A stretch of 50,689 nt of DNA from a virus (lineage: Duplodnaviria > Caudoviricetes): the IMG/VR virus record IMGVR_UViG_3300017766_002899, positions 1-50,689 of that record. The stretch is one strand, 5' to 3'. Positions within the stretch are counted from its first letter, which is position 1; every line of letters begins with the position of its first letter. Made by a program: the position numbers and the translations under genes. Shown piece after piece: positions 4,672 to 50,291 of the stretch. The notes under the pieces are model-generated. The model was given only the letters and a program-made list of their open reading frames with translations. It was not told where the DNA came from and made no database searches.

Positions 4672-6675
4672 ATGAATATCCTTGAGACCTTTTTCATTCT
4701 CTTTGAGACCGACGCCAAGCGGGCGCAAGCGGAGGTCCAAGGGGCGGTTGACGGGATGGCCGCCGCCACGGTGGGCGCGGACGCGAAGATGGCCGCCAGC
4801 GGGGCCGCCCAGACCGCGAGCCGGGTGGGTGGCGCGGCCAAGGTGGTCGGGGCTCAAGTGGCCGTCGCGGAGGCGGAGACGGGCGTGGCCGCCGCCGTCC
4901 AGGGCCGGGCCGTGGTGGAGGGCGCCCAGACCGCCGCGCGCCTGGGGCAAAGCCGCGCGGTGATCGCCGCGACGAACGCAGAGACCAACGCCACCCGGCT
5001 CGCGGAAGCGGCGGGGGAACGCCTGGGCTCCACCATCGGTTCGTTGGTCGGGAAATTCGGGCTTTTGATCGGGTCGGGTCTTAGCCTTGTCGGCGTCCTG
5101 GGGACGATCCGTAAGAGCTTCGCGGACATAAACGCGCTCACGGAGCAAGCGGACCGGCTGGGGTTCGGGGAGAACGTGGAGGGCCTCAACGCGGCCAATC
5201 AAGTCCTAGAGGACTACGGCGGCAACGCCGAAAAGGCGCAACGCAACCTCCGCCGGTTTTCGGACAGTATCGCGGAAGCCTATGGCGACGCCGAAAGCGC
5301 CGCGGGGAAGGCGCTGGCCGGGATCGGCGTAAATGCCGCCGACGCGAATGGCGACCTCAAAGATACCGAACAAGTCATGTTGGACATTGCTTCCGCCCTG
5401 GAGGGCGTGGGCAAGAAAAAGCAAATCGCCACGCTCAAGGATTTGGGCCTTAACGACCCGTCCTTGCGCGACCTCCTGACCGGCGGACGCCAGAATATCG
5501 CGGACCGGTTCGGGGCGGAGCGGTCCAAAGGGCTGATTACGAACGAGCAAGCCCGGCAAGTCCGGGAATATAAAATGGCCTGGGATGACGCGAAAGACGC
5601 GGTCTCCGGGTTCTTCAATACGCTTGCCGGCAACTGGGCGCCCGGGCTCACCAAATTTGCGAACCGCCTGGAGGCGTTCGTCCATTGGCTCCGGGAAAAT
5701 AAAACTCTCGTCCAGGGTTTCGGGATCGGCGTGACCATTGCGCTTACGACCATCGCGGGTGTTTTGTGGGGGACCTACATTCCCGCCTGGACCGCGGCGG
5801 CGGTCGCCACGATTGCGGCAACGTGGCCCATTCTCGCCCTGGTCGCGGCGGTCGGCGCGGCAATCGCCGTTTTCGCCCTGCTATGGGATGACGTCCAAGC
5901 CTTCCTCAAGGGCCAACCCTCGCTTATCGGGGACCTTGTGGAACGCTACGGCTGGGTCCGGGACGTCGTGGAGGGGATCGGGACGGCCTTCCGGGTCCTG
6001 AAAGATTGGGCCGGCGACGCCTGGGGCTTTATCTCCCGTGTCGGGACCGCCGCGTTTGACGCCGTGTGGAGCGTGGCCGGGCCGGTCCTGTCCCTGATAG
6101 GCGACGGGCTCAAGCTCGCGGGCAACCTCGCCGGGACTTCCCTCCGGCTTATTTGGGCCGTGGTCCAAGAGGTGTTCGGGGCTATCTGGCCGTATGTCCA
6201 GCCGATTTTCGCGCTGATTACCGCCGCCGTGGAGGCCATTGGCGGCATATTCGCCAACGTCGCCAAAGCGATCTGGGGCGAGTGGGGCGCCATGTTTGAC
6301 CGGTTCGCGGAGCGCGTCCGGTTCGTTACGGGTCTCGTCCGCGGGCTTATGGGCATGGCGGAGAACGCCCGCCAAGGGCTGGAGCGCGCCACGCCGGCCA
6401 TTGCCCAGCGGTCGGGAGCCGTGGCCGCGACGGTGGCCCGCGGGCAAGTCCAGCTTGGCTTGGCCCGGGCGAACCCTCTGGCCGCCGTGAGCGCCGGCGC
6501 CGTAGCGAACCGCGCGCCGGCCCAAGTCTCCCGGTCCATGGAGGTCAAGGTGGGTGAGGTCAACGTCCACACCCAGGCGACCGACGCCGACGGTATGGCG
6601 CGGGCCGCGTCGGGTGCGCTATCCTCTCAAATCCGCCGCGCAACCTCGCATTTTGACGACGGGCTGGACCGGTAA
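4672..6675 (+). CDS. Tape measure protein
   Basis: 667 aa, Ala/Gly-rich and helical, with hydrophobic segments and periodic Trp/Phe; synteny. Confidence 0.88.
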   Translation: MNILETFFILFETDAKRAQAEVQGAVDGMAAATVGADAKMAASGAAQTASRVGGAAKVVGAQVAVAEAETGVAAAVQGRAVVEGAQTAARLGQSRAVIAATNAETNATRLAEAAGERLGSTIGSLVGKFGLLIGSGLSLVGVLGTIRKSFADINALTEQADRLGFGENVEGLNAANQVLEDYGGNAEKAQRNLRRFSDSIAEAYGDAESAAGKALAGIGVNAADANGDLKDTEQVMLDIASALEGVGKKKQIATLKDLGLNDPSLRDLLTGGRQNIADRFGAERSKGLITNEQARQVREYKMAWDDAKDAVSGFFNTLAGNWAPGLTKFANRLEAFVHWLRENKTLVQGFGIGVTIALTTIAGVLWGTYIPAWTAAAVATIAATWPILALVAAVGAAIAVFALLWDDVQAFLKGQPSLIGDLVERYGWVRDVVEGIGTAFRVLKDWAGDAWGFISRVGTAAFDAVWSVAGPVLSLIGDGLKLAGNLAGTSLRLIWAVVQEVFGAIWPYVQPIFALITAAVEAIGGIFANVAKAIWGEWGAMFDRFAERVRFVTGLVRGLMGMAENARQGLERATPAIAQRSGAVAATVARGQVQLGLARANPLAAVSAGAVANRAPAQVSRSMEVKVGEVNVHTQATDADGMARAASGALSSQIRRATSHFDDGLDR

Positions 6676-37542: not shown

Positions 37543-39216
37543 ATGGCGGACGGTAGCGTTTTCATTCCGCCCGACCGCGGCGGGGCATTCAACTACATAA
37601 CGCCCGATTACACCGCCGTTTATAACGAGCGGATGCGGCGCCTTGAATGGCTCCGGGAAGACCCGGCCCGCCTGGAGACGTTGCGCGCCTACTACCGCGC
37701 GGAGGATGACCCGTCGCAACTGGGCGACCGGATCGCGGACTTTATCAACGATTGGGGAATTACGTTCGATCCGCGTAACGCGGACCTGGACCAACCCACC
37801 ATGATCCCGTTTGTATTGTTCGAACGGCAACGGGAGTGGATTAGGTATATCGTCCGCAAGTGGAAAGCGCGGGAACCTGGGATCACCGAAAAGTCCCGGG
37901 ATATGGGAATTTCTTGGCTGGCGGTCGCCTTGGGGTGTTCCCTCTGCGTATTCTTTGACGGCCTGAATATCGGTTACGGCTCGCGCCTAGTCGAGTACGT
38001 GGACAAGATCGGGTTTCCAAAGGCGCTCTTTTACAAAGCCCGCGCGTTTATGCGCTACCTCCCCGCGGAGTTCCGGGCCGGCTTTGACGAGAAACGCGAC
38101 GCCCCGCATATGCTCCTGAAATTCCCGGCCACGGGCTCCACGATGGCCGGCGAGGGCGGCGATAACATTGGCCGTGGTGATCGCGCATCCATCTATTTTG
38201 TGGACGAGGCGGCCCACCTAGAGCGCCCAATGTTGGTAGAGGCGGCGCTTTCCCAGACCACGAATTGCCAACAAGATATGTCCAGCGTTAAGGGCATGGA
38301 CAACCCGTTCGCCCAGAAGCGCCACGCCGGTAAAATTGAGGTCTTTACGTTTCACTGGCGGCAAGACCCTCGCAAAGACGATGCGTGGTACGCCAAGCAA
38401 TGCGACGAACTGGACGCCGTGGTGGTCGCCCAAGAAATCGACATCAATTACACCGCCTCCGCTACCGGTATCTTGATACCGTCCGAGTGGGTCCAGGCCG
38501 CGGTAAATGCCCACGAAAAGCTGGGCTTCGCGCCCACGGGCCGGCGCTTCGGGGCGCTGGACGTTGCGGACGAGGGCGTGGACCTCAACGCGTTCGCCCG
38601 GCGCTACGGCGTTCTCCTGGAGGACGTCACCGCCTGGAGCGGCAAGGGCGCGGACATTTTCAACACCGTAGAGCGCGCATTCATGGAGTGCGACGAAAAC
38701 GGCCTGGAGGAATGGTATTACGACGCCGACGGCCTGGGCGCGGGGGTGCGCGGGGACGCGCGGGTAATCAACGCCACCCGGGAAGAAAACGGCGTGTGGG
38801 TTTGCCGCGTGGAACCCTTCCGCGGATCGGGCCCGGTGTTCCAACCGGAAAAGCAAATTCCCACCGCGCTCGCCGGGGGCCGGGACAAAAAAGAGCGGCT
38901 CAACAAAGACTTTTTCCAGAACGCCAAGGCGCAAGCGTGGTGGTCCCTTCGCGTCCGCTTCCAACGCACGTTCCGGGCGGTCAAGGCCGGCGCGCTGGGC
39001 GATTACGAGCCCGACGACTTGATAAGCCTGGACGGCGGAATGACAGAGCTAGGCAAGCTTTGCCTGGAGCTATCGCAACCGACTTTCAGCCTCAACACCG
39101 CGGGAAAGGTGGTGGTCGATAAGGCGCCGGAGGGGACGCGGAGCCCGAACCATGCGGACGCCGTTATGATCGCCTACGCGCCGCGCAAGGGGAACTGGCT
39201 GAACTACCTTGGTTGA
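37543..39216 (+). CDS. Terminase large subunit
   Basis: Walker A KSRDMG.S, Walker B YFVDEAA, and RNase H-like LDVADEG.D, DADGLG and N.ADA. Confidence 0.93.
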   Translation: MADGSVFIPPDRGGAFNYITPDYTAVYNERMRRLEWLREDPARLETLRAYYRAEDDPSQLGDRIADFINDWGITFDPRNADLDQPTMIPFVLFERQREWIRYIVRKWKAREPGITEKSRDMGISWLAVALGCSLCVFFDGLNIGYGSRLVEYVDKIGFPKALFYKARAFMRYLPAEFRAGFDEKRDAPHMLLKFPATGSTMAGEGGDNIGRGDRASIYFVDEAAHLERPMLVEAALSQTTNCQQDMSSVKGMDNPFAQKRHAGKIEVFTFHWRQDPRKDDAWYAKQCDELDAVVVAQEIDINYTASATGILIPSEWVQAAVNAHEKLGFAPTGRRFGALDVADEGVDLNAFARRYGVLLEDVTAWSGKGADIFNTVERAFMECDENGLEEWYYDADGLGAGVRGDARVINATREENGVWVCRVEPFRGSGPVFQPEKQIPTALAGGRDKKERLNKDFFQNAKAQAWWSLRVRFQRTFRAVKAGALGDYEPDDLISLDGGMTELGKLCLELSQPTFSLNTAGKVVVDKAPEGTRSPNHADAVMIAYAPRKGNWLNYLG

Positions 39217-39270: not shown

Positions 39271-39369
39271 ATGACCTTTCTGGAAGCCCTCCGCCGCGCC
39301 TGGGCGTGGTACTGGAACGCGGTGGTTACGCCGCTCACCGACGAGGAACGGGACGATTTCGGCCTGTAG
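39271..39369 (+). CDS. 32-aa peptide with its own promoter
   Basis: GGAGA RBS; MTFLEALRRAWAWYWNAVVTPLTDEERDDFGL. Confidence 0.55.
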   Translation: MTFLEALRRAWAWYWNAVVTPLTDEERDDFGL

Positions 39370-39428
39370 ACCTTGAGGCGCGGGGGCGCTACTTTCCGCG
39401 GGAGCCATCCTTGGAAGGACCCGCCCCC

Positions 39429-40220
39429 GTGAAATCGACCCGCCTTTTCCTTGTGGCGCTCGCCGCGCTGGCCTTCGCGCCCGGCGCGGCGTTCGCACAA
39501 ACCCAGCCGATCCCCGGCGCCAAGACGGCCAGCGGCCAGCCGGCCCCCGTAACGGGCTCCGCCATCATCGTCGCCCCGGCGGGCGGCGGCGCGGGCCTGG
39601 GGACCGTCGTGGCGCGGGACTTCCCGTTGCCGATCACCTGTCCGGACGGGACGTGTTCGGGGGGCGGCGGCGGGAGCCTTAGCGCCCAAGTCACGCTGGC
39701 CGCGCCGACCTATACCGACGGGTCCAACCCACTAAGCCTGACCCGCAAGGGCGGGCTTCGCGCCACGCTCCAGACGAGCCTTGGCGCTGATATCGACTTT
39801 TCGACGCCGGTGGACTTGGTCGGGGCGGATGGCTCAACCAAGGTCACCACGACCAACCCACTCCCCCAGGCCCCCACGCCGACCGCCACGGCGGCGCTGG
39901 GCATTGCCCCGGTCAGTACGTCCGCGGCGGCGGCCTGTCTCGTCCTCAAGGCCAGCGCCGGCAACTTCTATTCCGCCAGCGGCTATGTGGACGCCGCGAG
40001 TTTCATCATGATTTTCGACGCCGCGTCGGCGCCGGCGGACGGAGCCGTGACCCCCAAGGCGTGGGCGTATGTCCCGGCGCTGGGAACGTGGTCCGTCATC
40101 ATGCCCGGCGGCATTCCGGCGGCCATGGCGACCGGGGCGACCGTGTGTCGGTCCTCGTCCGGCCCCTACTCCAAAACGGGCGTGTCCTCAAATACGGCCA
40201 TCACGGGGTTTGCTAAATGA
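39429..40220 (+). CDS. Signal-peptide-bearing spike/decoration-like protein
   Basis: GTG at 39429 with AAGGA RBS; MKSTRLFLVALAALAFAPGAAFA-Q; beta-rich C-terminal domain. Confidence 0.7.
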   Translation: MKSTRLFLVALAALAFAPGAAFAQTQPIPGAKTASGQPAPVTGSAIIVAPAGGGAGLGTVVARDFPLPITCPDGTCSGGGGGSLSAQVTLAAPTYTDGSNPLSLTRKGGLRATLQTSLGADIDFSTPVDLVGADGSTKVTTTNPLPQAPTPTATAALGIAPVSTSAAAACLVLKASAGNFYSASGYVDAASFIMIFDAASAPADGAVTPKAWAYVPALGTWSVIMPGGIPAAMATGATVCRSSSGPYSKTGVSSNTAITGFAK

Positions 40221-41032
40221 GCCGCTTTCTCGCCCTCTTTGCCGCGGCGCTTTTCGCGCTCGCGCCGGTCCTCGCGACCGCCCAGGATATCCGCGTTCCC
40301 GTCGCCTCTGGCGGTGGCGGCTCATTCGATCCGGCCATTCCGGGGCCCATCGGCGGGACCACGCCCGCGGCGGGGACGTTTACGACCCTTGTGGGCAACA
40401 CGTCCATTTCGTCGCCCGGCAACATCACCACGACGTCCACGGGTTCGATCACGTCCAACACTTCCATAACAGCGACCACGGATATCAACCTGGGGACGCT
40501 CAATAAGATCGCGTGGGCGACCCGAACCCGAATTGGCGCCCCGGGCGTTAATGGCGCGTTTTCCATCGAAAACAGTACGGGGAGCGTTGGCTTTACTATA
40601 GGGATCGGCGCGGTAACCGGAATTATGAACCTGGGCGGCGTCAACGCCGCCGCGCCCGGCGCAACTATCCTCGCCCAAGCCGGTTGCCGGGCGGGAACGG
40701 ACAGCAATTGCGCCGCGCCGGACCTCACCATCCAGAACGGCGTAACGACGGGGACGGCGACCGCGCCGGGCATCGTGTTCAAGACCCAGGCCGCCGCGGT
40801 CGGGTCGGGCTCCACCGCGCAAACCTTGGTGACTAGCTTCACCATCAAAGGCGGCGTTCCTGTCCGCCCGGCCTATGCGGCGGCCTCTTTGCCGGCGTGC
40901 GGCGCGGCCACTACGGGCGGCATGGCCTGGGTCACCGACGCGAACGCTACCACCTTCCTTTCCACGGTCGCGGGCGGTGGGGCCAACAAGGTCCCGGTTT
41001 CGTGCGACGGGACTAACTGGGTAATCGGGTAA
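40217..41032 (+). CDS. Signal-peptide-bearing fibre-like protein
   Basis: MSRFLALFAAALFALAPVLATA-Q; IGGTTPAAGTFT repeat-like segment; C-terminal fibre-type knob LP....G..AWVTD...DGTNW. Confidence 0.7.
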   Translation: MSRFLALFAAALFALAPVLATAQDIRVPVASGGGGSFDPAIPGPIGGTTPAAGTFTTLVGNTSISSPGNITTTSTGSITSNTSITATTDINLGTLNKIAWATRTRIGAPGVNGAFSIENSTGSVGFTIGIGAVTGIMNLGGVNAAAPGATILAQAGCRAGTDSNCAAPDLTIQNGVTTGTATAPGIVFKTQAAAVGSGSTAQTLVTSFTIKGGVPVRPAYAAASLPACGAATTGGMAWVTDANATTFLSTVAGGGANKVPVSCDGTNWVIG

Positions 41033-41035
41033 GCC

Positions 41036-43573
41036 ATGCTCAAAATCTCCTGGCCGATCTTCCGCGGCGTGACCGCGAAGGCGAATGCGCGCGTCTCGGA
41101 GGGGGCTCCGGAGGCTTTCACCAAAGCCGCCCAGGCGGTGCAAGTGGAGGTTCCCCAGCCCGTCGGGCTCCTGGAGCGAGCCCAGCGCACCGTGGCCGCC
41201 CTCGCGGAGAAAGCTCCGCGCAAGGCGAAACCCAAGGTCACGGAAAAAGAGTGGCGCGACCGTCGCGGGTCTCTCGCCCCCATGGCCCGCCGGGCGTTCC
41301 TCGCCGGCGCCGTCGGGCTCACCGTTACGGCCATGGCCCAAGACCAAGCCGGGGCCGCCAGCGCCGGACGCCTCCGCTTCGCACGGCCCATGGCCGCGCC
41401 GCCGTCGGGGCTCTTGTTCCCCTCTGCGTCCTGGGATGGGACCGCCGGAAGTGGGTTCTCGCCCGCCCAGTTGGTGGCGCTAGAAGACCCGATCCGGACC
41501 GGCCCTAAGATGATCCTCCGCCCGCTCCAGCCTCCGGAAGTGGCGTTTACAGAGGACCACACCCTGGTTGCGTCGGCGGCCAGTTTCGACGGCGTGGATA
41601 CGGTCGAAATTTGGTGCGAAGGAAACTACGTCGCCCAAGCCAACCGCGGCTGGTTTGATGACGTCGCCCCCGACGGTTCCACTTTCCAGCGGTACGGCTT
41701 CGGGGCCACGCTGGACCATTCCGTAATTCAAGCTTTTGGATTTGCGGAAGGGGCAATGCATATCTATTTCAAAGCCCCCACCCCCGCGGGAAGCACGATC
41801 CAACCCCGGGTCATGGGCCCGTATCTCTACTATGCCCGCAACCCCGGCGTCGGCGCTGGGTGCGAGTATGACTTTTCGGTTTTCGTGAAGCCGGGCGCGA
41901 CGACGCAGCCGGGCATTCGTTACCCCACCATCGTCTCCGCGCTCCTGTATTGCTCGCAACAAAGTAAGTTGCGGCCCCGTCTCGTCCTGGAGGACACGGC
42001 CCGCTATACGACCGCCGGTAATATCGCGGCGGCGGCGCATACGGGGAGTATGTGGTGGACGCTGGAGCCCGCCGCGGGCGTCACGGCGACGCTAGGGAAC
42101 TGGGATATTAACGACACGGTCGGAACGTCCTGGTATTGCGACAACCTCCATTTTAAGGGCGACATAGTTTTGGAGCTTGCGGCCATGGCTCCCCGTATGG
42201 GGTCCATGTATCGCGGTTGGAGCGGCGGCCAAAATAAGCTTTGGATAGACGGTTGCGAGGTTACCGGCGGGTCTTACGTCGGGTCCGGGTACGCGGGCGG
42301 CCTCGGATCGGGACAAGACATTTCCTATTACGGAGCGGTCCAAGCGAGCTATTTCTTCAATCGCAATAATACCAACCCGTTCAATTTCTATTTTACGCAT
42401 ATGTATATGCACGATCTACCCGGGTACATGATTGATAGTTCTCTATTGATCCTCAATTGTGACGTTGCCCGATGCTCCGGAACGGCCATCGAAAACAATT
42501 TTGGGGCAATCCACGGGTTGCGGGTTTCTGAGGTCGGCGGCATCCAGTCCGGGGCCCGGAGTTTTGTTGAGGTCTTCCGGCTTTCCTACACCGGCCCCGC
42601 GGCCTTGGCGCAATTCAACAAGTCTACCGCAAACGGTCGGGCCACATATTCCGGTTCCCCCACCGTCTACCCGCTAACTTTCTGGGAAGATAACGTAAAG
42701 GTCGGGGAAATTTACACGGTCCCGCCGGGTTCCTCCGGCTATACGACCATGCAAATTCTCGTAAACTACATCAATAGCTTGCCCGGCTGGACGGCTACGG
42801 CCACCGGGGGCGCACGGGATATGGCGTGGGGCGCGGAATATATTTCCGTTGCCGATATGGTGCCATCCGCGGGTGTTGGTATCCCCGGGGAAAGCGGCCA
42901 GCCATTCAGCAAACGCACGATCACGAGCACGCCGCTAAGCATGTGTCGAATTGCCGACGTCCACGCCAACGGTTTGACCTGGGATGGGGCGTTGCTCGCG
43001 CAAAACGTGACCGTCGAATTTGTCGAAGGGTTCAACATCACGTCCGCCGCCCACATGGGCGCGAGTACGGTAAAAGACTTCTGCGCGCGGTGGTGTACTT
43101 TCCAAGACACGTCCGCCGCGTACCAAATCGCCCACCCGACACACAACCCCGTCGTGGGGGCGCAAGCGAGCATTTACGGGGGGACGAGCAATCACTTCCT
43201 CGTCTCTGCGGTCACTTACGAGGGCCCAGGCCAGCAAGTGTTGACGCAATCCGCGACGGTCATGGATGCGAAATCCCGCATTGCGCGCTCCATTTTCGAA
43301 GTTCTGTCCATCAATAACGTCGCCAACCGCCCGGGGCTTAACGGTGTGGTGCTGCGGACCGGGGCGCTTCCCTCCGGCGCCGACGCCCTGTCAAAAACGC
43401 TCGCCGGCGCCTATACGGAGACGTTCCTTTTTGCGGACCCGTTCGGCGCGATCCCGTCATATGACCCCGTCGCCACCCAACTCCAGTTGAGTGACGGGAC
43501 GTGGGCCGGCGCTCGCCTCCCGGCGGTCCTCCACTCGCCCGCCAACAATGGGTGGAACTTGGCCGCCGCGTAA
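41036..43573 (+). CDS. Large tailspike/depolymerase-like protein with twin-arginine-like segment
   Basis: 845 aa; YPTI.SAL cap followed by a Gly/Asn/aromatic-rich beta-helix-like region; RRAFLAG plus hydrophobic stretch near residue 85. Confidence 0.6.
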   Translation: MLKISWPIFRGVTAKANARVSEGAPEAFTKAAQAVQVEVPQPVGLLERAQRTVAALAEKAPRKAKPKVTEKEWRDRRGSLAPMARRAFLAGAVGLTVTAMAQDQAGAASAGRLRFARPMAAPPSGLLFPSASWDGTAGSGFSPAQLVALEDPIRTGPKMILRPLQPPEVAFTEDHTLVASAASFDGVDTVEIWCEGNYVAQANRGWFDDVAPDGSTFQRYGFGATLDHSVIQAFGFAEGAMHIYFKAPTPAGSTIQPRVMGPYLYYARNPGVGAGCEYDFSVFVKPGATTQPGIRYPTIVSALLYCSQQSKLRPRLVLEDTARYTTAGNIAAAAHTGSMWWTLEPAAGVTATLGNWDINDTVGTSWYCDNLHFKGDIVLELAAMAPRMGSMYRGWSGGQNKLWIDGCEVTGGSYVGSGYAGGLGSGQDISYYGAVQASYFFNRNNTNPFNFYFTHMYMHDLPGYMIDSSLLILNCDVARCSGTAIENNFGAIHGLRVSEVGGIQSGARSFVEVFRLSYTGPAALAQFNKSTANGRATYSGSPTVYPLTFWEDNVKVGEIYTVPPGSSGYTTMQILVNYINSLPGWTATATGGARDMAWGAEYISVADMVPSAGVGIPGESGQPFSKRTITSTPLSMCRIADVHANGLTWDGALLAQNVTVEFVEGFNITSAAHMGASTVKDFCARWCTFQDTSAAYQIAHPTHNPVVGAQASIYGGTSNHFLVSAVTYEGPGQQVLTQSATVMDAKSRIARSIFEVLSINNVANRPGLNGVVLRTGALPSGADALSKTLAGAYTETFLFADPFGAIPSYDPVATQLQLSDGTWAGARLPAVLHSPANNGWNLAAA

Positions 43574-43574
43574 C

Positions 43575-43590
43575 TTGACGGGGGCGTCAA
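43575..43590 (+). promoter_or_regulatory. Promoter/operator copy
   Basis: TTGACG-GGGG-CGTCAA. Confidence 0.65.
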
Positions 43591-43629
43591 ACTAGCGCAT
43601 GGGTGGGGCCGTAATTTGGAGCCCCACCC

Positions 43630-44364
43630 ATGACCGCCCTTTTCATCACCGCCGGCCAGTCAAACGCGCTGGGTTACGGGCTCACCGCCGCGGACGTTCC
43701 GGCCCACCTCGTTCTCCCCAACCCCAGCGCCTACATTTTCGACGGGACGAACTGGGGCCAACTCCGCCCAGGCGTGAACACCGGGACGCCGGCCAACCCG
43801 CAAGCGTGGGGCCCGGAGGCCGAATTGGCTTACCGCTACGGCCTGGACCACCCGGGCGAAGTCCTCTTGATCGTCAAGAGCGCCAAGGGGTCCACGGGTC
43901 TCGCCGCCGACGGGGACCGGCTGGATTGGTCGCCGGACAGCGCGGGGGAGCTTTTCGACTTCACCGACGCCCGGATTGACGCGGCGCGGGCGGCATTCAC
44001 CGCGGCGACCGGGGAGGCCGCGCCCGGCGTGTCGGCGGCCTTCTGGATGCAAGGCGAGCAAGACGCGACCAACGCGGCGGACGCCGGCGCCTACGCCACC
44101 AACCTCGCGCACTTCCTTGAGGCGGTCCGGCTGGAGTGGATGGACAACCCCGCCGGCTACATCGGTCTTGGCCGGATCGGGGACAGCCCCGGGCTTGCCT
44201 ACGCCGCGGAGGTCCGGGTGGCGCAATGGTCGGTGGACCAAGCGGACGCCAGCGCGGAAAGCTTCAAAACGATAGGTTACGGGCTCCAGTCGGACGGCCT
44301 CCACTATGACGCCGCCGGCCAAACGTCGCTGGGCGGGGCGTTCTATGACGCGTGGGCATTCTAG
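43630..44364 (+). CDS. Carbohydrate acetylesterase (SASA/CE6-type SGNH)
   Basis: AGQSNA, GPE, K.A.G.T, WMQGE.D and DGLHY motifs. Confidence 0.85.
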   Translation: MTALFITAGQSNALGYGLTAADVPAHLVLPNPSAYIFDGTNWGQLRPGVNTGTPANPQAWGPEAELAYRYGLDHPGEVLLIVKSAKGSTGLAADGDRLDWSPDSAGELFDFTDARIDAARAAFTAATGEAAPGVSAAFWMQGEQDATNAADAGAYATNLAHFLEAVRLEWMDNPAGYIGLGRIGDSPGLAYAAEVRVAQWSVDQADASAESFKTIGYGLQSDGLHYDAAGQTSLGGAFYDAWAF

Positions 44365-44407: not shown

Positions 44408-46411
44408 ATGATCCGGTCATTTTTGCTGCGTTGGCTCTTTGGGACCACGGCCCTTGCTTCGGAGCAAGACGCGCCGCGAAGTCCCCTTTTTTCCACGCAC
44501 CTCCGGGTGGTCCCGGCGCGGCAAGAGACCGCGGAGAAACTCGCCCAGCGATACAAGCTCCCCCAGGCGGAAGGGGTTGGCGCGGTTGCCATGGATGCGG
44601 CAAACGGCGGCCTGGGGCTTAAGGGCTTCGCGGACGCCGACCTAGGGGACGCGCTCTTTGCGTGGTACGCCGCTCAAGGCTTTATCGGCTACCAACTCGC
44701 GGGCATCCTCGCCCAGCATTGGTTGATTGACAAAGCTTGTTCCATGCCGGGCCGCGACGCGATCCGCAACGGCTTTGAGGTCATGCTAACCGGCCCGACC
44801 ACGCCGGAGCATACCGAGGCGATCAAGAAAGCGAACAAGCGGTTCCGCCTAAACCGCCAGATGCAAGAATTCGTCCATATGGGGCGCGTCTTTGGCGTCC
44901 GGGTCGCAATTTTCAAGGTCAAGAGTTCCGACCCGAAATACTATGAGCGCCCGTTCAATATCGACGGCGTGGCCCCGGGATCATACCAAGGGATCGTCCA
45001 GGTGGACCCCTATTGGTGTACGCCCCAACTGGATATGGCCGCGGTGGCGGACCCGGCCAGCCCGGAATTTTACGAACCGACTTGGTGGTTTATCAACGGG
45101 GTTCGCTACCATCGCTCACACGTGGCGATCTTCCGGACGTCCCAGCCGGCGGACTTCCTCAAGCCGTCGTATTTCTACGGCGGAATTCCGGTCCCGCAAC
45201 AAATCATGGAGCGCGTTTACGGCGCCGAACGGTCCGCGAACGAGGGCCCGCAACTCCTGATGACAAAGCGTCTTATGACCTGGGGAACGGATATGTCCCA
45301 GGTCTTGGCGAACCAAGAGAAATTCAGCGAGCATATGCGGAACTTTACCGCGCTCCGCGACAATTTCGGCGTTCACGTCCACGATGCAGACGACACGATG
45401 CAGCAATTCGACACGGCGCTTGGCGACGTGGACGCCGTGACGCTTGCCCAATATCAGCTAGTGGCCGCCGGCGCCCGCGTCCCGCTTACGAAACTCCTGG
45501 GGACCTCGCCCCAAGGCGGCCTGGGATCGAACGGAGAGTACGAGGAAACCTCTTACCATGAGCATCTAGAAGACATTCAGGAGAACGACCTTACGCCGTT
45601 CCTGGAGCGCCACTTGGAACTTGTGGTGCGGTCCGAAGTCGAACCCAAGTTTCAGATGGAGCCGGGGACGCTGGAGCCGCACGTGGACTGGAACCCGGTG
45701 GACAGCCCATCGGCGGAAGAACTCGCCAAGCGCAACAAGGACAAGGCGGACGCGGATACGGCGTTGGTCACCATCGGCGCAATTGACGCCGTGGACGTCC
45801 GCAACCGCATTCGCACCGAACGAGACAGCGGCTATTTCGGTATCCAGGACGTTCCGGAAATGGGCGACCCGCTGGCGGAACTGGAGGCGGCCACCCAGGA
45901 GCTTGAGGCGTTGGCCGGCGGCGAGGACCCGCTAGAGGCGGCAACCGCGGCCCTTACCGGCGGAGCCGATCCGCTGGGCGCCGCGACCAAGGCGCTAACC
46001 CATAGCCCGTTGGAAACCGCAATTGCGGCCCTTAGCGGCCAAGACGGTTTCGACCTCCCGACCGCCGCCGGTGTGATCCTGACCCGGGCTAACGGGGACG
46101 TGCTTTGGCTCAAGCGTTCCGATCAAGAGGAAAACGAGCCCGGGAAATGGGGATGGCCCGGCGGTCGGATCGACCACGGCGAGAAACCCCAAGACGCCGC
46201 CATCCGGGAACTTCTGGAGGAAACCGGGATAGACTACGGGGCCCCCATAATCCCCGTGGGCATGGACGGAACCTATATCGTCTTCGCCGCGGTCTCCGTG
46301 GCGGCTCTGGACGTCCGCCTCAACTCGGAACACGTGGACTTTGCGTGGCGGCCCCTTAGCGACCCGCCCAGGCCGCTACACCGGGGGGTTAAGGCGTTCT
46401 TGAATGGCTAA
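44408..46411 (+). CDS. Portal protein (DUF1073-like) fused to a C-terminal Nudix hydrolase
   Basis: Portal motifs FIGYQ...Q.W, RVFG and VP.TKLLG.SP.G; complete Nudix box G-RIDHG-E-KPQDAAI-RELLEETGI. Confidence 0.9.
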   Translation: MIRSFLLRWLFGTTALASEQDAPRSPLFSTHLRVVPARQETAEKLAQRYKLPQAEGVGAVAMDAANGGLGLKGFADADLGDALFAWYAAQGFIGYQLAGILAQHWLIDKACSMPGRDAIRNGFEVMLTGPTTPEHTEAIKKANKRFRLNRQMQEFVHMGRVFGVRVAIFKVKSSDPKYYERPFNIDGVAPGSYQGIVQVDPYWCTPQLDMAAVADPASPEFYEPTWWFINGVRYHRSHVAIFRTSQPADFLKPSYFYGGIPVPQQIMERVYGAERSANEGPQLLMTKRLMTWGTDMSQVLANQEKFSEHMRNFTALRDNFGVHVHDADDTMQQFDTALGDVDAVTLAQYQLVAAGARVPLTKLLGTSPQGGLGSNGEYEETSYHEHLEDIQENDLTPFLERHLELVVRSEVEPKFQMEPGTLEPHVDWNPVDSPSAEELAKRNKDKADADTALVTIGAIDAVDVRNRIRTERDSGYFGIQDVPEMGDPLAELEAATQELEALAGGEDPLEAATAALTGGADPLGAATKALTHSPLETAIAALSGQDGFDLPTAAGVILTRANGDVLWLKRSDQEENEPGKWGWPGGRIDHGEKPQDAAIRELLEETGIDYGAPIIPVGMDGTYIVFAAVSVAALDVRLNSEHVDFAWRPLSDPPRPLHRGVKAFLNG

Positions 46412-47270
46412 GCGCGTCCCACTTACGCGGAAGCGGAAAGACTGGGCGGAAAAGCGGGGCGGTGCGACCTTCTGGGGCCACGCGCTGAATTACCCGGAGC
46501 GCGCGGAAAGCCGGTATCGCTCCGAACTGGAGCGCGCAATTTCGCTTATGCTCGCGGAGACCTCAAAGGGCGTCGCCCAGGTTTGGCGCGCGAACGCCCC
46601 GGCGGTTACGAGCGGCATGGACGCGTCTTTGGCGTCTCAAGCCCGCATCTTGACCAACGCAATGTCCCGTAAGTTCCAGGCGTTCTTTGACAAGCTCGCG
46701 CCTGGGCTCGCGAAACGCATGGCCGCCCAGGTCGCGGGGGCGAGTAAGGCCGGCTTGCATTCCAGCCTCAAGGAAGCGTCCGGCGGCTTGTCGCTGCAAA
46801 CGTCCGTAATCGACGGGCGCATTGCGGAAATCACCAAGGCGTCCGTTGCGGAAAACGTGGCGCTCATAAAGTCCATCCCCCAGAAGTATTTTACGGACCT
46901 CCAGGGCGCCGTTATGCGCTCTATTCAAAAGGGCGACGGGCTCCAGACCGTGTTGGAAGCCGTGACCAAAACGGGCGAGGTCACCAAGCGCCGGGCAACG
47001 CTGATAGCGACCGACCAAACGCGCAAGCTCACCACGTCCGTAAACGCGGCCCGGATGCAGAACCTAGGAATTCGAAAATTCGAATGGTTGCACTCCGCGG
47101 GCGGTAAAGAGCCCAGGCCGCTACATAAGAACGTCTTGAATGGTCAAATTTTCGACCTCGACAATCCGCCCGTTATTGACGAAAACACGGGGGAACGGGG
47201 ATTGCCCGGGCAACTCATTAATTGCCGGTGTAGGATGATCCCGGTAATTGACTTCGGGACAGACAAGTGA
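46404..47270 (+). CDS. MuF/SPP1 gp7-like head morphogenesis protein
   Basis: LIKSI, RA.LIA.DQT.K, W.HS....R..H and PGQLINCRC motifs. Confidence 0.88.
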
Positions 47271-48490
47271 GCGCGCGGCGACACGACGTAAACGGGTGGT
47301 TTGAGGTAGAGCGCAACCCGCTGTCCAAAGCCGGCGTGTTCCCCTACCTGGGTCGCCAGATCGGGGCCCCGGGGCCCAACCGCCTCTATTACGTGCTGCG
47401 TCCCGCGGAGGAACTTGGGTCCGCCGAAACCGTGGCCTCGTTTCGTCTCATGCCGTTTGTGGACGAACACGCCATGTTAGGGTCCGAAGACGACGGGCTC
47501 ACCCCGGCGGAAGAAAAGGGCGTCCATGGGGTGATCGGGGAGCGCGTCTTTTTCGACCCCACGGACGGCGTCCTTTACGGGAACCTCAAGGTTTGGTCGG
47601 AAAAACTGGCCGCCGATATTTCGGGCGGTAAAAAACAACTATCCGCGGGCTACCGGTGTGTTTACGATTTCACACCGGGAGCCTACAACGGCGAACGATA
47701 CGACGCGGTCCAGCGCGTAATGCGGGGAAACCACTTGGCGCTTGTAGAGCGCGGGAGGATGGGCCCTGAGGTTGCGGTGTTGGATCAATTCGCAATGGAC
47801 ATGAAGGACGCGACACCGATGGACCCCGAACTGATGCAAAAAGTTCTCGCGGCGCTGCAAGCCGCCGTCGTCGCGGTCCAAGGGGCCATGGGCGGCGGGG
47901 GTGGCGACACCACGAACGGGGACACCAATTCGGGCGCGGGCGGCGACACGGTCGCCGGTGAAGCCGGCAAGGACACGGTCACCGGCGACGGCGCCGCGGA
48001 CACCGTGGGCGGCGGCGACGGAAACGACACCATTTCAGGCGGGGACGGAAACGACACCGCCAGCGGCAAGGACGGAGATATGACCATGTCCGGTAACGAC
48101 ACCACTTCGGGCGGCAACGCTCAAGACGCCCTCACCACCGACGAGCGCGCCGAACTCAACCGGCTTCGCGCCGCGGCCAAGACGCCGGCCCCGGTGGGCA
48201 TGGATGAAACCGCCATGGTCCAGACCTTCGCCAAGCGCGACGCGCTGGCCGACCGGCTCAAGGGCCACGTGGGGACCTTCGACCACGCCGGGATGACGCT
48301 GGCGGAAGTCGCCGCCTACGGTGTCGCGAAGCTGGGGCTCACCGACGTCCCGAAGGGCCAAGAGGTGGTGGCGCTGGACGTCGCCCTCCAGGCCAAGGGC
48401 TCGCCCTCCGGCCCCGTGGTCACGGGTGCCCAGGACGTCGCCGCGCGCGAAACTTTCGTCCAGAAGCATCTGGCCGGCTCCGCGGCGTAA
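47267..48490 (+). CDS. Prohead protease/scaffold (DUF2213-like)
   Basis: GVFPY, SF...P..DEH, LSAGY and NHLALV..GR.G motifs, then a low-complexity scaffold. Confidence 0.85.
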
Positions 48491-48522: not shown

Positions 48523-49092
48523 ATGTCTTTCCAATCCTCTGTCCTCGCCCAGATCGGCGCCGGCGTCATTGGCGAACTCGCCTTTGATGGCCCGTTCCGC
48601 GGTCAACCGGCCATCGTCCATTCCGCCGACGCGGCCAATAACGTCGTCGGTCGCGCCTTCACGATCACGTCCGGCGCCACCGGTTCGTGGCAAGCGGGCT
48701 CCGCCGGTGCGGCCAACCCCGCCGCCATCAAGGTCGCCGCGGGCGGCGCTGGCGTCTTCGCCGGCATCCTCGCGAACCCCAAGGTCTACGCCCTGGTCGG
48801 AACCGCCGTCGGCGGCCCGCTGGCGCCGTCGCTGGCCGTTCCCAACGATATCGCCGTGGAACTGGTCACCGAGGGGGACATTTTCGTGGCGCTGGGCGCC
48901 GCCTCCGCGCCGGGTGACGTGGTGTGGTATCTGGAGGCTACGGGCGTTCTCGTCACGTCCGCCCCGGGCGCCGCGCAACCGGCCCTGACCGGAGACTATC
49001 CCATCGGGACGGTCCAGCGGTTCACGGACGCCGCCGCGTCCATCGCGGTCATTCACGTTTCGCCTTACGTCCCGATCCCTCCGGCGGCGTAA
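48523..49092 (+). CDS. Capsid decoration/cement protein
   Basis: Lies between protease and MCP; FQ..V....G..GE, FAGIL and G..FV motifs. Confidence 0.7.
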   Translation: MSFQSSVLAQIGAGVIGELAFDGPFRGQPAIVHSADAANNVVGRAFTITSGATGSWQAGSAGAANPAAIKVAAGGAGVFAGILANPKVYALVGTAVGGPLAPSLAVPNDIAVELVTEGDIFVALGAASAPGDVVWYLEATGVLVTSAPGAAQPALTGDYPIGTVQRFTDAAASIAVIHVSPYVPIPPAA

Positions 49093-49178: not shown

Positions 49179-50291
49179 ATGGCCCTCCGGCCCTCCGAAA
49201 TTCATTCCAGCATTGCGGGCCGTGACGTTCGCCCCGTGGTGATGACCGCCGCCGACGTGTCGGACTATCTGGAGCTTCGCACTCTGGGTATCGACCTGGA
49301 TGAGCGGATCGTCCGCCAGATGATCGTGGGGCTAGACGCCGCCCCCGACCTCCAGCCCACGGTGTACGGCTCCACGTCCGTAACCCCGATCCAGTTTCTC
49401 CAATCGTGGCTCCCGGGTTTCGTCTCCGCGATCACCCAGGTCCGGGCCATTGATGACCTCATCGGCATCACGACCGCCGGGGACTGGGAGGATGAGGAAA
49501 TCGTCCAGGGCGTGATGGAGCCCACCGGCCTCGCCCAGCTTTACGGGGACTATACCAGCGTCCCCTTGGCGTCCTGGAACCTGACTTTCGAGCGCCGGAC
49601 CATCGTTCGGTTCGAGGAAGGGATGCAAGTGGGCGTCCTGGAGGAAGCTCGCGCGTCCAAGGTCCGCGTGGCCTCCGCCGCCCGCAAGCGCGCCTCCGCC
49701 ACGCTCGCGCTGGACATTCAGCGCAACCGCGTCGGGTTCTACGGCTACAACTCCGGGCCGGGCCGGACCTACGGGTTCCTCAACGATCCGTCGCTTCCCG
49801 CCTACGTGAACGTCCCGAACGGCGCCGGCGGCTCGCCCCTCTGGGCGAACAAGACGTTCCTGGAAATCACCGCCGACATTCGTTCGGCGTTCGGCGCCCT
49901 GATCGTCCAGGCCGGCGGCCTCGTCAAGAACTCCGACAAGGTCACGCTCGCGCTCCCGCTGGGCTCGGACAACTATCTGTCCGTGACGTCGGAGTTCGGC
50001 AACTCGGTCCGCACGTGGCTCAAGGACACGTATCCCAATATGCGGGTGGTGACCGCTCCGGAACTGGCCGCGGCCAACGGCGGCGTGAATGTGTTCTATC
50101 TCTACGCCGACAGCGTCCAGGACGGCGACAGCGACGACGGCGGCCAAACTTGGCTCCAGATCGTCCCGACCAAGTTCAAGACGCTGGGCGTGGAGAAACG
50201 CGCCAAGAACTACCTGGAGGACTATGCCAACGCGACCGCGGGCGTTATGCTGAAGCGGCCCTTCGCGGTGGTGCGGCGCTCCGGTATCTGA
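49179..50291 (+). CDS. Major capsid protein (DUF2184-like)
   Basis: 370 aa; G.W.D, YGD, N..GFYG, YGFLNDP.LP, W..KT..EI..DI and G...KRP.A motifs. Confidence 0.9.
   Translation: MALRPSEIHSSIAGRDVRPVVMTAADVSDYLELRTLGIDLDERIVRQMIVGLDAAPDLQPTVYGSTSVTPIQFLQSWLPGFVSAITQVRAIDDLIGITTAGDWEDEEIVQGVMEPTGLAQLYGDYTSVPLASWNLTFERRTIVRFEEGMQVGVLEEARASKVRVASAARKRASATLALDIQRNRVGFYGYNSGPGRTYGFLNDPSLPAYVNVPNGAGGSPLWANKTFLEITADIRSAFGALIVQAGGLVKNSDKVTLALPLGSDNYLSVTSEFGNSVRTWLKDTYPNMRVVTAPELAAANGGVNVFYLYADSVQDGDSDDGGQTWLQIVPTKFKTLGVEKRAKNYLEDYANATAGVMLKRPFAVVRRSGI

Follow-up and report, generated by a model that had tools for sequence, protein, structure and literature searches.

What does a nucleotide hydrolase do at the end of a phage portal protein? 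The question is raised by one gene of an uncultured phage (Duplodnaviria; Caudoviricetes), IMG/VR record IMGVR_UViG_3300017766_002899. The window, that is, the whole stretch of DNA that was analyzed, covers positions 1 to 50,689 of this record on one strand. The gene lies at 44408-46411 on the plus strand and encodes a portal body, a linker, and a Nudix hydrolase domain. The most likely function, to which we give a probability of roughly 55%, is that of a head-packaged effector like the known fusions of enzymes to Portal, MuF, and head-peptidase proteins: the linker would be cut, the enzyme ejected, and a host nucleotide hydrolyzed. The parts of the gene are as follows.

44408..46411, plus strand: portal-Nudix open reading frame (ORF), 667 aa and a stop codon, open frame without stops
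44408..44662, plus strand: N-terminal region, residues 1-85, poorly conserved (majority-residue fraction 0.57), AlphaFold2 confidence (pLDDT) below 50
44663..45847, plus strand: portal body, Phage_portal_3 / DUF1073, residues 86-480
45848..46042, plus strand: variable linker, residues 481-545, with four xPL..A...L helical units (about 45860-46036) and then GQD (46037-46045)
46043..46408, plus strand: Nudix hydrolase domain, residues 546-667
46163..46231, plus strand: Nudix box, residues 586-608, GX5EX7REUXEEXGU

A portal protein with a Nudix domain

The original prediction, made from the letters alone, had placed the portal body, the helical repeats, GQD, and the Nudix domain in one frame. This was borne out: the frame is open for 667 codons, and GQD is found at the positions given for it. 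Conservation among the homologues extends to the N-terminus given by the ATG at 44408, with M1 invariant. Residues 96-451 matched Phage_portal_3 (PF06381; Pfam) with an E value of 4.6e-81 and 272.7 bits against a cut-off of 33.8, over profile positions 2-356 of 357. A phmmer search against the solved gp19 portals, with 12 chains per entry, gave E values of 1.4e-126 (9b41) and 8.4e-124 (8fvh, E217), and by tblastn the portal body shares 49% identity with gp19 of Pseudomonas phage E217. The gene product is a Phage_portal_3 portal, and a dodecameric ring is predicted from the homologous structures.

For the C-terminal part, the original prediction had reported a perfect Nudix box and had proposed profile searches and structure prediction. 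The segment GRIDHGEKPQDAAIRELLEETGI (residues 586-608) does fit GX5EX7REUXEEXGU at every position, and both analyses returned a Nudix domain. NUDIX (PF00293; Pfam) matched residues 551-653 with an E value of 1.7e-17 and 64.1 bits against a cut-off of 21.1 (67 bits in a second scan). The predicted structure has the Nudix fold, with AlphaFold2 pLDDT of 88-98 over residues ~550-667. The top PDB matches in Foldseek (3grn, 1sz3, 4dyw, and 1ktg) were MutT-like Nudix enzymes at a probability of 1.0, and the nearest PDB relatives by sequence and fold were uncharacterized MutT-like proteins, 3grn, DR1025, Ap4A hydrolases, and RppH-type enzymes. The domain is a minimal (~120 aa) MutT-like Nudix, and its catalytic motif is intact. 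It is the only Nudix domain encoded in the genome.

The [DS]PL..A...L repeats described in the original prediction were recovered in part: three are exact (residues 507-516, 521-530, and 533-542), and the fourth, from D485, is imperfect. A search for a tandem repeat at the DNA level in the linker found none. AlphaFold2 predicted four short linker helices (residues 488-502, 508-516/517, 522-531/532, and 535-543) at low confidence, with pLDDT of ~56-80 in one model and below 50-60 in the full-length model. HMMER aligned residues 484-530 with gp19 497-544 at weak similarity, and the first linker units therefore appear to occupy the position of the C-terminal barrel helix of E217. The full-length AlphaFold2 model was poor (mean pLDDT 63.5, linker below 50), too poor to judge whether helix 488-502 extends the portal barrel.

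Conservation of the fusion

In run X1, a Logan contig of 30 kb that was built with another assembler (depth ~370) spans 45600-46500; it has no indel there and a single substitution. Run X1 comes from a freshwater metagenome, possibly the sample from which the window was obtained. The substitution, A>T at 46266, results in D620V and falls in a variable column where most homologues have V. The original prediction would fall with a stop or a frameshift between the two domains; none was found, either in the ORF or in this contig. Run X2, a metatranscriptome, covered only 45600-45732 at a depth of 2.8 with three differences, and it gives no support for expression or habitat.

A fusion with both Pfam domains was found in 18 further protein clusters from other contigs (19 with the window). 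In the alignment of the 19 fusion proteins, G586, E592, R600, E601, E604, E605, and G607 are invariant. The mean majority-residue fraction was 0.79 in the portal body, 0.80 in the Nudix domain, 0.92 in the Nudix box, which is the best-conserved segment, and 0.51 in the linker, which varies in length from 49 to 75 aa and has 17% gaps. The contig, the 18 clusters, and the conservation of 0.80 against 0.79 show that the fusion is genuine and that the Nudix domain is constrained like the portal.

Predicted location of the Nudix domain in the capsid

The portals of phages E217 and Pa193 have been solved. In the accounts of gp19 given in the two structural papers, the model runs from residue ~94/97 to 528 of 765, so that the first 93-96 residues are absent, and residues 529-765 have no density in the virion maps (PMC10329688, PMC11456595). 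The C-terminal helical barrel, of ~30 residues, projects into the head and is described there as folded only with DNA present (PMC10329688, PMC11456595). The post-ejection map of E217 still shows the portal (PMC10329688).

We found an InPase domain (PF18823) at residues 635-753 of the 765-aa E217 gp19 (L059:3198-5495), inside the tail that lacks density. The word pyrophosphatase is absent from the Pa193 paper (PMC11456595).

Since the C-terminus reaches into the head in the solved homologous portals, 12 Nudix domains are expected inside the capsid. Each virion probably holds them tethered above the portal channel. The original prediction had claimed that portal C-termini face the capsid interior and that about 12 Nudix domains are enclosed per virion; the first claim holds by homology with the solved portals, and the second follows soundly from the likeness to gp19.

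Exchange of cargo among related portals

We surveyed the best 120 of 2107 relatives of the portal. NUDIX was present in 19, Acb1 (PF23474) in six, and the portal domain stood alone in 95. Acb1 occupies residues ~512-658 of its portals, the site of the Nudix domain here, and was confirmed by rescan in two of the six. The statement in the original prediction that some DUF1073 portals are fused to Acb1 is correct for these six, at the same position. The survey for interchangeable C-terminal enzymes, which it had also proposed, returned Nudix, Acb1, InPase, or an unassigned extension. InPase was found on the 856-aa portal of locus L042; the portal of L043 is equal in length and match pattern. In the window protein, the Acb1 profile PF23474 had no match at E <= 0.1, and the likeness to Acb1 is positional only.

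Fourteen of the 95 portals with the portal domain alone bear a C-terminal extension of 100-147 aa (P0062, P0065, P0071, P0072, P0079-P0081, P0084, P0104, P0105, P0107, P0112, P0113, and P0121). Most of them belong to one clade, and the extension may be a further type of cargo. Scanning of five (P0072, P0079, P0081, P0112, and P0121) gave no Pfam match, and an ESM Atlas search with residues 484-613 of P0079 gave scores of 0.81 at most, which is chance level.

A quick maximum likelihood tree of the 120 portal bodies (LG+G4, SH-aLRT support only, unrooted) placed all 19 Nudix portals in one subtree of 30 rows (support 87), alongside 11 Nudix-less portals. Parsimony required six changes in the presence of Nudix, and the starred branches force at least two. 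One Nudix-less portal, P0019, nests within the 99* clade that contains the window portal, and the Acb1 portals make up a clade of their own. The tree being unrooted, gain and loss of the Nudix domain are indistinguishable.

The same Nudix clade on the prohead protease

Of the cultured phages, BcepB1A has the most similar portal (45% identity). Its portal, gp28, is plain, and its gp26, annotated as a head maturation protease, has NUDIX (residues 46-118) followed by DUF2213. Among 55 related IMG/VR loci, one encodes a portal-Nudix protein and 13 a Nudix-protease; 41 have no Nudix within the available stretch (some of these 41 are truncated).

The 124-aa Nudix domain was also searched against 1.84 billion representative proteins, which gave 8887 matches at E <= 0.001. 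Among the best 150 of these, at least 65 were fused to a DUF2213-type protease, a lower bound because the protease was detected by phmmer with the window's own protease as the query. Two were fused to portals, 36 were tandem Nudix proteins without the protease, and 47 had a single Nudix or a Nudix with unidentified domains. A tblastn search with the Nudix domain against 50,697 phage records matched 34 of them. In Burkholderia phages Bcep781, Bcep43, Bcep1, and BcepNY3, the gene that matched bears the annotation 'portal protein'. Ralstonia phage PQ43W encodes a free-standing 176-aa Nudix within its structural module. In PHROG, phrog_15528, labelled 'portal protein', already spans the Nudix region.

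The 36 tandem-Nudix relatives (P0124-P0128, P0133, and others) are ~240-690 aa long, with two or three Nudix domains and no head-protein domain detected. Further head genes were noted at three related loci. The prohead protease gene at L016:7466-9976 has, in addition to NUDIX and DUF2213, an LPD3 domain (large polyvalent protein-associated domain 3), all within one stop-to-stop frame of 837 aa. At L046:8613-12107, a 1165-aa frame has an N-terminal DUF2213, a scaffold-like end, and ~900 uncharacterized residues between them. L015:5956-7956 encodes a 667-aa MuF-like protein in which the MuF domain is followed by a weak match to Intein_splicing (E 2e-5, below cut-off).

Comparison with known systems

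The original prediction implied that the architecture was new, and this did not stand. It is annotated in Bcep781 and its relatives Bcep43, Bcep1, and BcepNY3, and the idea of packaging and injection is already put forward in the relevant sections of PMC9503650 and PMC5512222. The window is a new uncultured example of a portal-Nudix architecture already annotated and interpreted in print.

The same single-gene architecture occurs in Bcep781 gp17, and also in Bcep43 gp17, Bcep1 gp18, and the BcepNY3 portal (genus Naesvirus). Bcep781 gp17 has 695 aa, with Phage_portal_3 at 116-480 and NUDIX at 576-679, and the two proteins align collinearly right up to their last residues, with a P.PLH motif near the C-terminal end of both. 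Its RefSeq note reads 'similar to ... nudix hydrolase family proteins'. As in the window, its gene is followed by a MuF-like gene and then a head protease gene. The two proteins differ in sequence (27% identity overall) and in the linker, which has no DPL..A...L units in Bcep781. The hosts of the Bcep781 group are Burkholderia, whereas the window is from an uncultured phage matched in a freshwater metagenome run.

In the type represented by BcepB1A gp26, the Nudix belongs to the clade of the window domain, and the head module again consists of portal, MuF, protease/scaffold, cement, and major capsid protein. A fusion of Nudix to the DUF2213 protease was confirmed with Pfam in pdc_04 of Pantoea phage PdC23, and it is presumed from gene position and length in Klebsiella phages Chronis and Roth and in Yersinia vB_YenM phages, whose records were matched by the Nudix domain in the tblastn search. 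In these fusions, the Nudix domain is at the N-terminus of the protease-scaffold, in contrast to the portal C-terminus in the window. With the domain in this position, each procapsid would hold far more copies of it, and self-cleavage would be an obvious way to release them.

Homologous portals fused to InPase are found in E217 and Pa193 (gp19; 8fvh, 9b41) and in BcepF1.124. In them, as in the window, the enzyme lies past the C-terminal barrel. The cargo of E217 gp19 differs in being an OB-fold domain of the inorganic-pyrophosphatase type, not a Nudix, and the linker is longer. Portals fused to Acb1, a 2H phosphoesterase, are ~60% identical to that of the window, and their cargo also cleaves phosphate linkages of nucleotides. 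Acb1 reportedly cuts 3'-5' phosphodiester bonds of cyclic oligonucleotides. Its fold and chemistry differ from those of the window domain, as Nudix enzymes cleave pyrophosphate bonds. A literature search on delivery by portal-Acb1 proteins found statements from comparative genomics only and no experimental paper.

T4 NudE (e.1) is a phage Nudix like that of the window and, according to its database record, is active on ADP-ribose, FAD, ApnA, and NADH. It differs in being a free-standing protein that belongs to another PHROG. In T4, head cargo is addressed by an N-terminal capsid targeting sequence and not by portal fusion. Alt and the internal proteins of this phage are the classic head-packed, injected enzymes (PMC9503650). 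Iyer et al. (2022) predicted that Nudix domains fused to Portal, MuF, and head peptidase are packaged, injected effectors (PMC9503650, section 3.5.2), and for such fusions they named a T4 NudE-like clade (ADPR/FAD/ApnA). Portal fusions to InPase (BcepF1.124), 2H, and PBECR domains are among those treated by Iyer et al. (2017; PMC5512222). The window protein shares two traits with these predicted effectors: an enzyme shares one polypeptide with a Portal, MuF, or head-peptidase protein, and the cargo is interchangeable.

Possible function of the Nudix domain

The original prediction had proposed delivery at infection against nucleotide immune signals or ADP-ribose marks, which is a reasonable idea. 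If the Nudix domain is a packaged effector, the DUF2213 prohead protease, whose gene is the second one downstream, might be the enzyme that cuts the linker and releases the cargo. The freed 13-kDa Nudix enzyme might then leave the capsid along with the DNA and, early in infection, hydrolyze a host nucleoside-diphosphate-X compound or a polyphosphate nucleotide. Candidate substrates would be an immune signal, an alarmone, ADP-ribose or NAD derivatives, or an RNA 5' end.

Several lines of evidence argue for an effector. The domain architecture is established and the catalytic motif intact. The portal resembles gp19, which has 12 chains per entry and a C-terminus that points into the head. The fusion is kept in 19 clusters in which the Nudix domain is conserved like the portal body and the linker is not. 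The same Nudix clade rides on another protein of the head interior, the DUF2213 protease. The unseen tail of E217 gp19 and the portal of L042 carry InPase, and sister portals carry Acb1. The domain is the only Nudix in the genome. Finally, the idea agrees with comparative genomics published in the sections of PMC9503650 and PMC5512222 on head-protein fusions. By analogy, the neighboring Acb1 and InPase cargo would favor a nucleotide signal or a pyrophosphate compound as the target.

Several points weigh against this reading. Portals remain in the capsid and are not ejected. There is no portal-Nudix protein with a known cleavage site, a released fragment, or virion proteomics. The C-terminal domain of E217 and Pa193 is unseen, which fits tethering or loss alike, and twelve copies are a small dose. 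The 11 Nudix-less portals nested among the Nudix portals indicate that the cargo is dispensable, and a literature search for experimental cases of anti-defence by phage Nudix enzymes found none. Sequence and fold reach 'minimal MutT-like Nudix' only, and the substrate is not readable from them.

The window domain also lies outside the PHROG of T4 NudE, a further point on the same side. Its own group is phrog_1198 (E 1e-18), and only the box (residues 31-66, E 1.4e-10) matches phrog_1185; T4 NudE is in phrog_1185 (E 4.7e-74), with a weak match to phrog_1198 (3.4e-7). BLASTP gave 34% identity between the two over only 65 aligned residues. The ADP-ribose pyrophosphatase subfamily is marked by a Pro ~15-16 residues past the Nudix box. 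In the window domain, positions +15/+16 are Y623 and I624, not Pro, which is a lead only. An aromatic residue at these positions is typical of ApnA hydrolases.

The most serious alternative, which we consider unlikely, is that the Nudix domain is permanently tethered and never injected. It would then act late in the producing cell, on free portals or procapsids, or within the procapsid, and the fusion would serve only for late co-expression and fixed stoichiometry. The E217 map shows that portals stay in capsids after ejection (in the portal account of PMC10329688), no cleavage evidence exists, and the gene is within the late head operon; all three are in agreement with tethering. However, a late cytoplasmic enzyme needs no fusion to three carriers of the head interior, namely the portal C-terminus, the protease N-terminus, and MuF (the last according to PMC9503650). 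In addition, the swap at the same site with Acb1, of a signal-degrading nuclease family, suggests a shared logic of delivery.

A second alternative, less likely again, keeps packaging and injection and assigns the enzyme to host take-over instead of immune evasion. The domain would be an RNA 5' pyrophosphohydrolase of the RppH or decapping type, or an NTP/ApnA pyrophosphatase, and would destabilize host mRNA or reshape nucleotide pools. The PDB matches by sequence and fold include BdRppH (3ees), RppH, Dcp2, and Ap4A hydrolases. RNA pyrophosphohydrolase models are among the next-best NCBIfam equivalogs for the domain, all of which are far below cut-off. The domain is presumably also too minimal to hold the extra domain of ADP-ribose pyrophosphatases. 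These matches, however, mostly reflect the box and fold common to Nudix enzymes and all stay below the family cut-offs, and the sister cargo Acb1 suggests degradation of a signal.

It is very improbable that the Nudix fold is structural or non-catalytic and, for example, senses pressure, binds DNA ends, or forms a plug above the portal barrel. The domain does lie just past the region aligned with the barrel helix, and in E217 the barrel is described as folding only when DNA fills the head (PMC10329688). Yet the metal-binding and catalytic residues of the Nudix box are invariant in all 19 proteins, the box is conserved best of all, and closely related portals do without the domain. An artefact, that is, a frameshift or a misassembly that joined two genes, is refuted by the X1 contig without an indel, the 18 further fusion clusters, and the cultured phages with the same single gene.

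Genome and gene neighborhood

The genome corresponds to the whole IMG/VR record, which has direct terminal repeats, is rated 100% complete, and is ~50.7 kb long. It has an exact terminal repeat of 123 bp, 65% G+C, and no tRNA genes. It also codes for a tail sheath, a tape measure, a DNA polymerase, a helicase, a primase, and TerL, and the tail sheath and the other genes indicate a contractile-tailed phage. The portal gene belongs to a head-assembly module, with the genes for MuF, the DUF2213 protease/scaffold, the cement protein, and the major capsid protein downstream.

37543..39216, plus strand: terminase large subunit (TerL), phrog_2, E 9.4e-22, upstream of the portal gene
46404..47270, plus strand: Mu F-like head morphogenesis protein, Pfam Phage_Mu_F, E 2.4e-14; its start overlaps the portal stop codon
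47267..48490, plus strand: DUF2213 prohead protease with a scaffold-like C-terminal part, Pfam DUF2213 at residues 5-174, E 3e-40
48523..49092, plus strand: capsid cement protein, Pfam Phage_cement (E217 gp24 / Pam3 gp6), E 3.4e-10
49179..50291, plus strand: major capsid protein, Pfam Major_capside, E 1.6e-13

The DUF2213 protease at 47267..48490 carries no Nudix in this phage. Between its protease and scaffold parts, it has Gly/Asp-rich nonapeptide repeats that resemble those of RTX proteins (HemolysinCabind profile, residues 223-256, E 1.2e-5).

The interval between TerL and the portal gene (39306-44364) holds four ORFs of 304, 271, 845, and 244 aa. The 244-aa ORF is a carbohydrate esterase of the SASA type (E 1.3e-19), and the 845-aa ORF had no match in Pfam or PHROG. 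The interval is an unusual site for proteins that may be receptor-binding or glycan-modifying.

An ORF at 4672-6675, also of exactly 667 aa, was considered as a duplicate of the portal gene and rejected: it is tape-measure-like and has no similarity to the portal, and the equal length is due to chance.

Significance of the fusion

In principle, little here is new. The gain is a quantified picture of carriers and cargo, with counts for portals and for relatives of the Nudix domain, and the InPase domain in the unmodelled portal tail of E217 and Pa193. The Bcep781 group, BcepB1A, PdC23, and E217 are cultured phages in which packaging, cleavage, and ejection can be tested directly.

A bolder proposal, which we offer tentatively and hold to be possible, is that the C-terminus of Phage_portal_3 portals is a dock for swap-in cargo, and that a second such address lies at the N-terminus of the DUF2213 protease. 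In this lineage, the dock would deliver a dedicated, head-associated Nudix clade as a pre-made enzyme, which would break down a pyrophosphate-linked immune nucleotide only seconds after the DNA enters. Candidates for this nucleotide are ADPR-derived Thoeris signals, toxSAS alarmones, and chain-terminating or signalling (d)NTP analogues. If this proposal is true, the domain would be without precedent both as a Nudix enzyme that counters host defence and as one shown to be carried by a portal. If the Nudix domain is indeed a cargo, phages of this kind would bring 12 ready-made nucleotide hydrolases into the cell without awaiting gene expression, which would bear on how fast signalling defences can be disarmed.

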